From the sequence record PV654397.1: DNA of 64,000 nt; one strand, 5' to 3'. Source of the DNA: Escherichia phage WPEC5. Under the pieces are notes generated by a model. That model made no database searches, was not told the DNA's origin, and was given only the letters and a program-made list of their open reading frames with translations. Below are positions 8,077 through 9,045 of the stretch, piece by piece. Numbering within the stretch: position 1 is the first letter of the stretch; each line of letters starts with the position of its first letter. Position numbers and translations under genes: made by a program.

Positions 8077-9045
8077 TTAAAAATCTTCGAACTCATAACC
8101 TTTTGTCTTAACCATCTTACGCAGTCGTTCCATTGCTTCAGAGTACTTACGGTGCAATGAAGAACGAGCAGTCATGACCTTACCCTTCTCATCTTCAAAA
8201 CCACTCTCAATGATTTCTCGTAGCGTTTCTGGTTCAGAATAAGAACCAATACCATGTACACGTTCAATCAATTCACGGTCTTTGGCAGATAGGTTACTCA
8301 TCATTTCTGCAATACTTTGTACCAGTGGGGTACTGACAGTTTCTACGCCTAAGTTGTAATCAGGTTCAACTGAAGTAACAATGTCAGATAATGTACTTTC
8401 TGAATCATTACTCATTTTCATATTCAATGCTACATAAGTGTTATTGTAAGTTAGACAATTCTTAACGTGTTGAATCTCAATACCAGTCTCTTTTGACACC
8501 ATCTCAGGAGTTGGGTATTTACCATGTTTCCTTTGATACTCTTCTACACAACGTTTCACATAAATGTTATTAACACTCATATAACGTGGGAAATGCACTA
8601 GATAATTAGCATCTGCACTTTCGTTATAGATTGTCATGTACACAGTTGTTGTTGCATATGTAATGAACTTAACATTTTTGGTAGTGTCGAACGTATGAAT
8701 TGCTCGCATTAAACCTTCAACACCATAAGAAATCTTATCTTCAAATGGGATAAAACATGTACACTTACGTGCAACACTTACTACCATTGGATAGTTGTAG
8801 CGAACCAAAAGGTCAATGTTCTTTTCAACGTCAATACCATCACGCACTGCTTGGATGAGCATTTCATTCGTTATCCCTTTAGGGCGAGTTAAGCTGATAC
8901 CTGTTTTTGGTTTCTCAAACTTGTGACCGTCATGTTCTTCTTCTTCTTCGACGGAATCAAGAGCCTCTAATACGTTGACTTCTTCACTAGCAAAACACTC
9001 ATCCAGTACTTCTTCAGAAATTGCATTTAAATCAAGCTTTTTCAC
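8077..9045 (-). CDS. sigma-70 family RNA polymerase sigma factor
   Basis: region 2-like segment YGVEGLMRAIHTFD...KFITYAT and C-terminal HTH (region 4-like) LSAKDRELIERVHGI; acidic N-terminus; followed by strong terminator. Confidence 0.75.
   Translation of the reverse strand: MKKLDLNAISEEVLDECFASEEVNVLEALDSVEEEEEHDGHKFEKPKTGISLTRPKGITNEMLIQAVRDGIDVEKNIDLLVRYNYPMVVSVARKCTCFIPFEDKISYGVEGLMRAIHTFDTTKNVKFITYATTTVYMTIYNESADANYLVHFPRYMSVNNIYVKRCVEEYQRKHGKYPTPEMVSKETGIEIQHVKNCLTYNNTYVALNMKMSNDSESTLSDIVTSVEPDYNLGVETVSTPLVQSIAEMMSNLSAKDRELIERVHGIGSYSEPETLREIIESGFEDEKGKVMTARSSLHRKYSEAMERLRKMVKTKGYEFEDF

Follow-up and report, generated by a model that had tools for sequence, protein, structure and literature searches.

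Sigma-70-family proteins encoded by bacteriophages, such as gp28 of the Bacillus phage SPO1 and gp36 of coliphage phiEco32, displace the host sigma factor on the core RNA polymerase and switch transcription between temporal classes of phage genes. Here we analyze a gene for another phage sigma factor of this family, located at positions 8077..9045 (minus strand) of a stretch of 64,000 nucleotides from Escherichia phage WPEC5 (record PV654397.1), hereinafter the window. The SPO1 and phiEco32 factors, which we take to be smaller and to lack the sigma-3 domain, have functions demonstrated by experiment, whereas the role of the window sigma factor is deduced from sequence. The succession of gp28 (middle genes) and gp33/34 (late genes) in SPO1 and the action of gp36 in phiEco32 follow the cascade logic that is proposed below. 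Switching of temporal classes by phage sigma factors on the host core RNA polymerase is described in PMC13401047.

The closest described systems are those of jumbo phages. All group 2 jumbo phages encode two kinds of sigma factors, one minimal and one RpoD-like (Iyer et al., 2021; PMC7824862). For phage CBB, Buttimer et al. (2017; PMC5259590) reported a sigma factor encoded in the presumed early region, promoters of the RpoD type and, in front of the genes for DNA synthesis, a divergent promoter (TGAAACG plus TATA); they also noted a gp55-like gene and the late motif ATAAATA. The papers on phages fEgEco12 and Sharanji also list the sigma gene. Both this gene and the combination of RpoD-like and gp55-type factors are thus already known and annotated in many phage genomes; only the promoter assignment and the non-coding RNA element discussed below, each proposed from sequence comparison, have some novelty.

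The jumbo-phage sigma factors of group 2 that are orthologous to the window protein include Gp519 of fEgEco12, the proteins of Ecwhy_1 and PBECO4, gp167 of 121Q and RpoD of Sharanji, as well as ORF244 of RaK2, the GAP32 protein, CBB_513 and g498 of fHe-Yen9-04. These proteins and the window sigma factor have in common a context of small early-type open reading frames (ORFs), an N-terminal motif, an insertion in the sigma-4 domain and the lack of the tryptophan (Trp) dyad. There is no difference of substance between the window protein and the sigma factors of Asteriusvirus and the RaK2-like phages, and it is a member of the same family. Tentatively, we propose that this family is a phage-only lineage of sigma-70 factors in which a beta-hairpin-bearing region 4 has co-evolved with the -35 element (GRGACA, TGAAAC or TGAACA) while the host-type extended -10 element was kept, and that it would take the middle step of a three-sigma transcription cascade in T4-related jumbo phages, replacing MotA/AsiA, and would control a hitherto undescribed four-copy family of structured non-coding RNAs of about 450 nucleotides.

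Phyletic distribution of the sigma factor

The 3-kb stretch around the sigma ORF shows 99.2% identity to Escherichia phage fEgEco12 (PP777464, 374,733 bp), 97-99% to several other jumbo coliphages and approximately 83% to the Asteriusvirus genomes of the 121Q/PBECO4 type. On the reverse strand of fEgEco12, the counterpart of the window extends over approximately 251-315 kb, and the ORF corresponds to gene g519, which is annotated as an RNA polymerase sigma factor. The fEgEco12 genome, assembled from its record, served for the genome-wide gene and promoter counts reported here.

In tblastn searches, the gene is found in 94 phage records, 70 of which contain it in full length. The identity of the orthologues falls from 99-99.7% in fEgEco12 and Ecwhy_1 to 59% in 121Q/PBECO4 (Asteriusvirus), 39% in RaK2/K64-1, 37% in GAP32 and CBB, and 33% in Eneladusvirus and in the Erwinia, Serratia and Yersinia jumbo phages. 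An exhaustive profile search of 1.84 billion representative sequences yields 19 clusters (at 50% identity) with E-values below 1e-30, beyond which the scores drop to a continuum of bacterial sigma factors near 1e-26. All members of this clade lack the Trp dyad and all contain the sigma-4 insertion. The features of the RaK2/121Q-type clade, namely full-length similarity with a match to PHROG 351, the motif KLxLxxIxxE[VI]LDExF and the sigma-4 insertion G[FY]xDxxGK, are all present in the window protein (alignments A1 and A4).

Domain architecture and conserved residues

That the window protein is a true member of the sigma-70 family is nearly certain. Pfam detects Sigma70_r2 (residues 80-142, E-value 2.6e-9, 37.2 bits with a cut-off of 24) and Sigma70_r3 (residues 163-225, E-value 1.3e-11, 44.9 bits with a cut-off of 25.3), and returns no match to region 4, region 1.1 (Sigma70_r1_1) or region 1.2 (r1_2) on the 322-amino-acid protein. 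The sole PHROG match is to PHROG 351 (RNA polymerase sigma factor; 2.7e-48); the absence of matches to PHROG 234 and PHROG 12791 places the protein outside the T4 gp55 family of late sigma factors, and the gp55-like gene of this lineage lies outside the window. Among the NCBIfam profiles, 49 sigma models match, led by RpoD_Cterm (2.4e-27), SigB and RpoS, with scores far below the curated cut-offs throughout (96 vs. 354 bits for RpoD_Cterm, 57.8 vs. 555 for PRK05658, 61-68 vs. 190-234 for FliA, SigF and SigB), so that none of the bacterial sigma factors can be considered an equivalog of the window protein. The best matches among the PDB sequences are Mycobacterium tuberculosis SigB (2.5e-17), SigA and E. 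coli RpoS (2.4e-15, residues 80-320 vs. residues 94-325 of RpoS). In BLASTP comparisons, the identity is 26% to E. coli RpoS over residues 80-320, from region 2.1 to the C-terminus (E-value 6e-22), and 24% to sigma-70. A sequence-only reading of this DNA had identified the ORF as a sigma-70-family factor and had named a profile search as the analysis that could overturn this identity; the searches of Pfam, NCBIfam, PHROG and the PDB sequences, together with the predicted fold, all point to a sigma factor.

The protein consists of an N-terminal motif (residues 1-18), an acidic linker extending to about residue 58, sigma-2 (~60-146), sigma-3 (~154-199), a second linker (200-233) and sigma-4 (~234-315), with an insertion (281-292) between the two helices of the helix-turn-helix (HTH). 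The AlphaFold model, built from 29 sequences with a mean predicted local distance difference test score (pLDDT) of 71, contains three helical domains (~60-146, 154-199 and 234-315), the last with a pLDDT of about 88, and a disordered segment (residues 1-51); in Foldseek, this model matches best, among PDB structures, the sigma-S subunit of a transcription initiation complex (5ipl_F, 5.5e-11). The acidic N-terminal extension that had been noted from the sequence is real, with 16 D/E and 7 K/R among residues 1-58. Among the 11 closest homologues, three segments are invariant or nearly so, namely residues 1-18 (MKKLDLNxIxxEVLDECF), the helix RSSxHRKY and a C-terminal ExEDF, and the N-terminal motif (window positions 8992..9045) is recognizable across the clade. 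Residues 1-18 loosely resemble the N-terminus of E. coli RpoS (LKVHDLN...EVFDE; common pattern KLDLN...EV[LF]DE).

The sequence-only reading had also reported region 2 and region 4 signatures. Region 2 is detected by Pfam in the window protein and in all 21 rows of the clade alignment (A4), E. coli RpoS being one of these rows; the Pfam region 4 profile matches 6 of the 21 rows, again including E. coli RpoS, and the C-terminal 87 amino acids taken alone yield an E-value of only 0.025 with the sigma-4 domain of RpoS. Nevertheless, as the whole-protein alignments to RpoS and SigB extend through region 4.2 and the helical model is confident at residues 234-315, region 4 appears to be present in a divergent form. 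The resulting architecture, with sigma-2, sigma-3 (Pfam) and sigma-4 (model) and without region 1.1, is that of the group 3 alternative sigma factors. The lack of matches to regions 1.1 and 1.2 and of an equivalog-level score does not fit a group 1 primary sigma factor of the RpoD type.

Over regions 2-4, RpoS and the primary sigma factors (RpoD/SigA) are the best sequence and structure matches of the window protein, with which they share the FxTYA signature of region 2.3 and the order of the three domains. They differ from it in the low identity (24-26%), in region 1.1 and the Pfam-detectable region 1.2, which the window protein lacks, and in residues implicated in DNA melting and contacts with the -10 and -35 elements in groups 1 and 2 (W433, W434, Q437, T440 and R584-Q589), where it has replacements. 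In terms of sigma-70 positions, the conserved residues are N383, D403, I405, G408, G411, L412, M413, A415, F419, F427, Y430, A431 and P453. By our own mapping, the equivalent of K/R423 is conserved as well; this residue and F419, F427, Y430, A431 and N383 presumably line the pockets for -11A and -7T. The replaced positions are Y425 (V), W433/W434 (T/T), R436 (Y), Q437 (M), T440 (Y), R441 (N), H455 (Y) and E458 (V). In region 4.2, an insertion of 8-9 residues separates the two HTH helices, forming a small beta-hairpin at 281-292 in the model, and the predicted recognition helix reads RSSLHRKY compared to RERIRQIE in sigma-70, with changes of E585 to S, R588 to H and Q589 to R, which we take to be the -35-contacting positions. 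The invariant residues of the lineage cluster in regions 2.1-2.4, 3.0 and 4.2. Based on this homology and conservation, the protein very likely acts as a sigma factor on the host core RNA polymerase.

Promoters of replication genes and the predicted sigma-4 recognition helix

Inspection of the regions upstream of the replication genes reveals a promoter with fixed spacing, tGRGACA-N13-TGnTATAAT, which we denote class C. The pattern [GA]GAC[AG]-N13-TGnTAnAAT has 24 matches in fEgEco12, all on the gene strand, compared to 0.43 in shuffled sequences. Four class C matches (0.14 expected) are found in the window, all on the minus strand: 8012..8038 (tGGGACA-N13-TGaTACAAT), which heads a putative non-coding RNA and is a candidate target of the sigma factor, 31291..31317, 32275..32301, and 62032..62058, upstream of the gene for the large subunit of topoisomerase II (60032..61996). 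The genes preceded by class C promoters encode gp32 (two promoters, at 221697 and 221773 of fEgEco12), primase, clamp, exonuclease, helicase, the large subunit of topoisomerase II and a nudix hydrolase, among others; the promoter is also found in front of the gene for a gp55-like late sigma factor and of four copies of the non-coding RNA. It is quite possible, judging from sequence comparison, that these promoters are the regulon of the window sigma factor.

The replication modules of seven phages (window/fEgEco12, PBECO4, SE_PL, EJP2, CBB, Serratia BF and RaK2) are syntenic, and their orthologous promoters were compared for the clamp, RNaseH, gp32, the ORF following the helicase gene, primase and exonuclease. 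The sequence TGnTATAAT is identical across the seven phages, and the -35-like element located at a fixed distance from it varies by lineage. It is TGRGAC(A) in window/fEgEco12, PBECO4, SE_PL and EJP2, the predicted helices of which are RSSLHRKY, RSSIHRKY, RTSLHRCY and RCTIHRRY, respectively (R-x-[ST]-[LI]-H-R-x-Y); TGAAAC(G) or TGGAAT in CBB and Serratia BF, both with the helix KATLSRRY; and cTGAACA in RaK2, with the helix RGTLHYKF. Thus, the class of the -35-like element matches that of the predicted region 4.2 helix in 7 of the 7 genomes. The sigma factors of SE_PL and EJP2 show 46% and 42% identity, respectively, to that of CBB and 37% and 39% to that of the window; because these two are closer to CBB and yet have the helix class and the motif of the window, the motif tracks the helix and not the overall similarity of the sigma factors. 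Region 4.2 of the host sigma-70 is, as far as is known, virtually identical across these enterobacterial hosts and, for that reason, cannot explain the differences between the -35-like elements. Region 4 of the phage sigma factor is accordingly the best candidate for the reader of this element, as far as sequence comparison can tell.

The CBB-type -35 motif TGAAACG was also counted in the window, where it is not enriched (14 copies vs. 8.75 expected, with 8 of 100 shuffles reaching 14); this motif is lineage-specific.

Two further promoter classes are recognized. Class A comprises approximately 20 copies of a uniform AAAAAGTACTTGCA-N17-TATAATGTTTTACAT promoter in the terminal repeat of fEgEco12. 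In this direct repeat (1-21 kb and 353.7-374.7 kb, outside the window), these near-identical strong promoters take the form AAAAAGTACTTGCA-N17-(G)CGTATAATGTTTTACAT, and each is followed by a short hairpin and a tiny ORF; with their UP-like A-tract and the -35 element CTTGCA, they look like an immediate-early class. For class B, TTGACA-N15-19-TANNNT, the window contains 36 matches (10.3 expected), 35 of these on the gene strand. Enrichment of k-mers in the unexplained upstream regions yields no further strong motif beyond ribosome-binding sites, parts of terminators, late promoter variants and the terminal-repeat promoter.

A gp55-type sigma factor and its probable late promoters

In phage T4, gp55 is the late sigma factor acting at TATAAATA promoters, and the sequence-only reading had assumed that the sigma-70 homologue was employed here instead of such a factor. 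For this lineage, the assumption is wrong. The 99%-identical fEgEco12 encodes, next to homologues of T4 gp47 and gp46, a protein (g336; 190974..191912, outside the window) that matches PHROG 12791 (sigma factor for late transcription; 1.4e-152) and PHROG 234 (the T4 gp55 family; 1.5e-16), as well as T4 gp55 itself in BLASTP (3e-4). Given these matches to gp55-type profiles, the phage lineage encodes both kinds of sigma factors, a sigma-70-type and a gp55-type one. No ribosome-binding site precedes the annotated start of g336 (190974), which overlaps a class C promoter; further on in the same frame, the ATG at 191073 is preceded by the ribosome-binding site GGAGAG, and the PHROG match starts at residue 36. 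The gene is probably annotated 33 codons too long, with the true start at 191073. The class C promoter (190989..191015) would then lie ~57 nucleotides upstream of the start, and the protein would be ~279 amino acids long, compared to 185 for T4 gp55, that is, with an N-terminal extension.

Late-type elements do exist in the window, as had been observed before: TATAAATA at 58519..58526 (minus strand), upstream of the gene for a 798-amino-acid virion structural protein, and AATAAATA at 13781..13788 (plus strand), upstream of the sole plus-strand gene (13820..14977; a structural protein in fEgEco12). In the fEgEco12 annotation, the respective genes g420 and g507 encode virion or structural proteins, and neither gene has a Pfam match. 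The fEgEco12 genome (375 kb) contains 49 copies of ATAAATA, and 29 of the 49 are located no more than 70 nucleotides upstream of the start of an ORF on the same strand, mostly ORFs for structural proteins (sheath, tube, capsid, baseplate and others); most of the copies that persist are located directly in front of structural genes and often have (T)ATA 4-5 nucleotides further on. In the window, exact TATAAATA is depleted (2 vs. 9.6 expected), and so is ATAAATA (11 vs. 35 expected). These patterns point to counter-selection of spurious late promoters and to a late element of two parts. Thus, as in T4, the lineage combines a gp55-type factor with ATAAATA elements in front of virion genes. By this analogy, the TATAAATA-like elements are likely to be promoters of the gp55-type factor and not of the window sigma factor; as part of a genome-wide late motif preceding structural genes, they are uninformative on the specificity of the latter.

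A possible transcription cascade and alternatives

Combining these observations, a cascade can be outlined in which the host sigma-70 holoenzyme would transcribe the sigma operon early, as the placement of promoter, operon and terminator seen in the sequence suggests. The phage sigma factor, to judge by homology, would bind the host core RNA polymerase via regions 2.1/2.2 and sigma-4, and the resulting holoenzyme would start transcription at the class C promoters, that is, the putative middle promoters recognized by comparative sequence evidence, with the divergent helix of region 4.2 (RSSLHRKY instead of the RERIRQIE of sigma-70) reading the -35-like GRGACA. The gp55-like factor might then drive the late ATAAATA promoters of the virion genes, by analogy with T4. 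Such a cascade of three sigma factors (host sigma-70, the window sigma factor and the gp55-like factor) would be SPO1-like, with the window sigma factor filling the place of MotA/AsiA in T4. Indeed, the T4 middle promoters resemble class C both in their targets (replication and nucleotide metabolism) and in their layout, a host-type -10 element combined with a phage-specific upstream element that replaces the -35; in T4, this upstream element is read by an activator on a remodeled host sigma-70, whereas here the dedicated sigma factor is the best candidate reader.

Several observations weigh against this assignment. The sequence-level homology in region 4 is weak, as described above, and the core-binding residues Q406, E407 and N409 of region 2.2 are not conserved in the lineage. 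The class C -10 element is a perfect host-type extended -10, yet the phage sigma factor lacks the sigma-70 residues that read it (W433/W434, Q437, T440, H455 and E458, replaced as listed above); for these two reasons, the host sigma-70 could use the class C promoters unaided. The covariation involves three motif classes only, and these also follow the host groups (E. coli/Salmonella, Klebsiella and Pectobacterium/Serratia). EJP2, with a sigma factor distant from that of the window, has the helix class and motif of the window and is likewise an E. coli phage, so that the confounding with host group persists. Another lineage-specific DNA-binding protein of the phages would give the same pattern of covariation. 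Finally, the literature found on this sigma factor and its orthologues consists of annotation-level statements only.

One alternative would be a working sigma factor of essentially housekeeping specificity that keeps the TTGACA-N17-TATAAT and TGnTATAAT promoters active when sigma-70 is limiting, inhibited or sequestered, the class C -35-like element being read by another phage protein. The best sequence and fold matches are indeed to group 1/2 sigma factors (RpoD_Cterm, SigB, RpoS), all phage promoter classes except the late one have a canonical TATAAT, and the putative A-11/T-7 pocket residues, by our assignment, are kept. We nevertheless consider this unlikely given the replacement of W433/W434/Q437/T440 in regions 2.3/2.4, the 8-9-residue insertion and the altered 4.2 helix (with E585, R588 and Q589, presumably -35 contacts, all replaced), and the TTGACA-type promoters, which are reported to be unchanged in relatives with different sigma-4 helices, according to the description of CBB (PMC5259590). 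Similarly doubtful is an arrangement in the manner of MotA/AsiA, in which the host sigma-70 and a phage activator bound at the -35-like element serve class C, and the phage sigma factor has another regulon or a non-promoter role, such as competing for the core. The T4 middle promoters work by such logic, TGnTATAAT in class C promoters has the form of a canonical extended -10 element for sigma-70, and 175 of the 266 intergenic upstream regions fit none of the simple patterns, so that other motifs may exist. However, no AsiA or MotA is found among the fEgEco12 annotations, the k-mer analysis of the unexplained regions points to no further strong motif, and the -35-like class coincides with the sigma-4 helix class in each of the seven genomes. 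A phmmer search with T4 AsiA, MotA and gp55 against all fEgEco12 ORFs produced no match, but it missed even the gp55 homologue that is present and is too insensitive to indicate absence. A function other than that of a sigma factor, as a decoy or a degenerate sigma-like HTH regulator, seems very improbable: the low NCBIfam scores, the lack of a Pfam region 4 and the loss of the Trp dyad and several core-binding residues would fit such a protein, but the three-domain architecture is intact and has been kept over a clade of 19 clusters, the invariant residues fall mainly in regions 2.1-2.4, 3.0 and 4.2, and the Trp dyad is likewise missing from group 3 sigma factors, FliA and SigF among them.

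With respect to the recognition specificity of jumbo-phage sigma factors, class C, tGRGACA-N13-TGnTATAAT, is a concrete, falsifiable candidate. If the assignment of class C to the window sigma factor is correct, it would define the temporal program of a large group of jumbo phages that are candidates for therapy, and the lineage would provide a natural series of sigma-4/-35 specificity variants, all operating on one enterobacterial core polymerase.

The sigma operon and its signals

The sigma gene starts with GTG, 5 nucleotides downstream of a Shine-Dalgarno sequence, AGGAGA (9051..9056, minus strand), that can be read directly from the sequence. Three small, tightly packed ORFs (9992..10252, 9567..9986 and 9068..9565, spanning 9068..10252 on the minus strand) precede it and are probably co-transcribed with it. 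In the gap upstream of this four-gene run (10252 to 8077), there is a promoter of the sigma-70 consensus type, TTGACT-N17-TACAAT (10292..10320, minus strand), which is likely to be the early promoter of the sigma operon; a second promoter of this type is located at 10613..10641. An intrinsic terminator with an 11-bp stem and a T-run (8042..8072, minus strand) directly follows the stop codon of the sigma gene. The sigma gene, then, is the last of a four-gene run headed by a host-type promoter, within a block of small ORFs that is rich in TTGACA-N17-TATAAT promoters, and its early transcription from host-type promoters is plausible and fairly probable. A generic scan for sigma-70 promoters around the gene gave 16 matches vs. 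14.8 expected, which is not above chance; an excess is seen only for the strict class B pattern counted over the entire window. The ORF directly upstream of the sigma gene (9068..9565, minus strand) is annotated in fEgEco12 as the ATP-dependent protease subunit HslV; despite this annotation, it has no Pfam match at E-values up to 0.001.

A putative structured non-coding RNA element

The sigma terminator is followed by a 660-bp ORF-free stretch that starts with the class C promoter 8012..8038 and contains an element of ~470 nucleotides (7535..8004, minus strand) with four paralogues per genome, counting itself, and hairpins supported by covariation. The other paralogues in fEgEco12 are located at 59.9-60.4, 110.67-111.08 and 195.79-196.15 kb and show 71-79% identity; each of the four is found behind a class C promoter. 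RNAalifold applied to the four copies predicts 58 pairs, with 97.8% of the cells paired, and compensatory changes are observed in 25 of the 58 pairs, compared to 10.6 +/- 2.1 in shuffled alignments (0 of 500 reaching 25) and 1-5 in slid controls. Since structure prediction and covariation count relied on one set of four sequences, this result is suggestive of a conserved RNA structure but not conclusive; the single-sequence fold is unimpressive (z = -1.5), and the support for the structure comes only from the covariation among the four paralogues.

At the gathering threshold, Rfam detects only tRNAs in the whole window and no family for the 7535..8004 element. A scan of 7380..8100 with E-values up to 1 gave three weak matches that score far below gathering; two of these cover the terminator, and the third is on the other strand. 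The UE-S1 record labels the element merely as a repeat_region. Four transcribed non-coding RNAs have been described in a relative, in the PA5oct paper.

Other features of the window

The sequence-only reading had placed the sigma factor alongside a T4-like replication module. The corresponding genes are indeed present in the window, encoding topoisomerase II subunits (58569..61996), a clamp loader (53249..54202) and a fragment of Pol III alpha (55293..55811), and lie at least 44 kb away from the sigma gene, the surroundings of which consist of small ORFs.

A tRNA cluster (20786..25365, minus strand) contains genes for Thr(tgt), Asn(gtt), Met(cat) and Ser(gct) according to ARAGORN, two of the tRNAs in the cluster being unusually long (85-90 nucleotides), and a fifth, weak tRNA-like match is found by Rfam at 25287..25365 (32.6 bits). 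At 47931..48011 (minus strand), a long inverted repeat, AAGAGTGCGTTTTCAA...TTGAAACGCACTCTT, followed by a T-run, contains a consensus TTGACA-N17-TATAAT promoter; given this arrangement, the sequence could serve as a terminator hairpin and a promoter in one.

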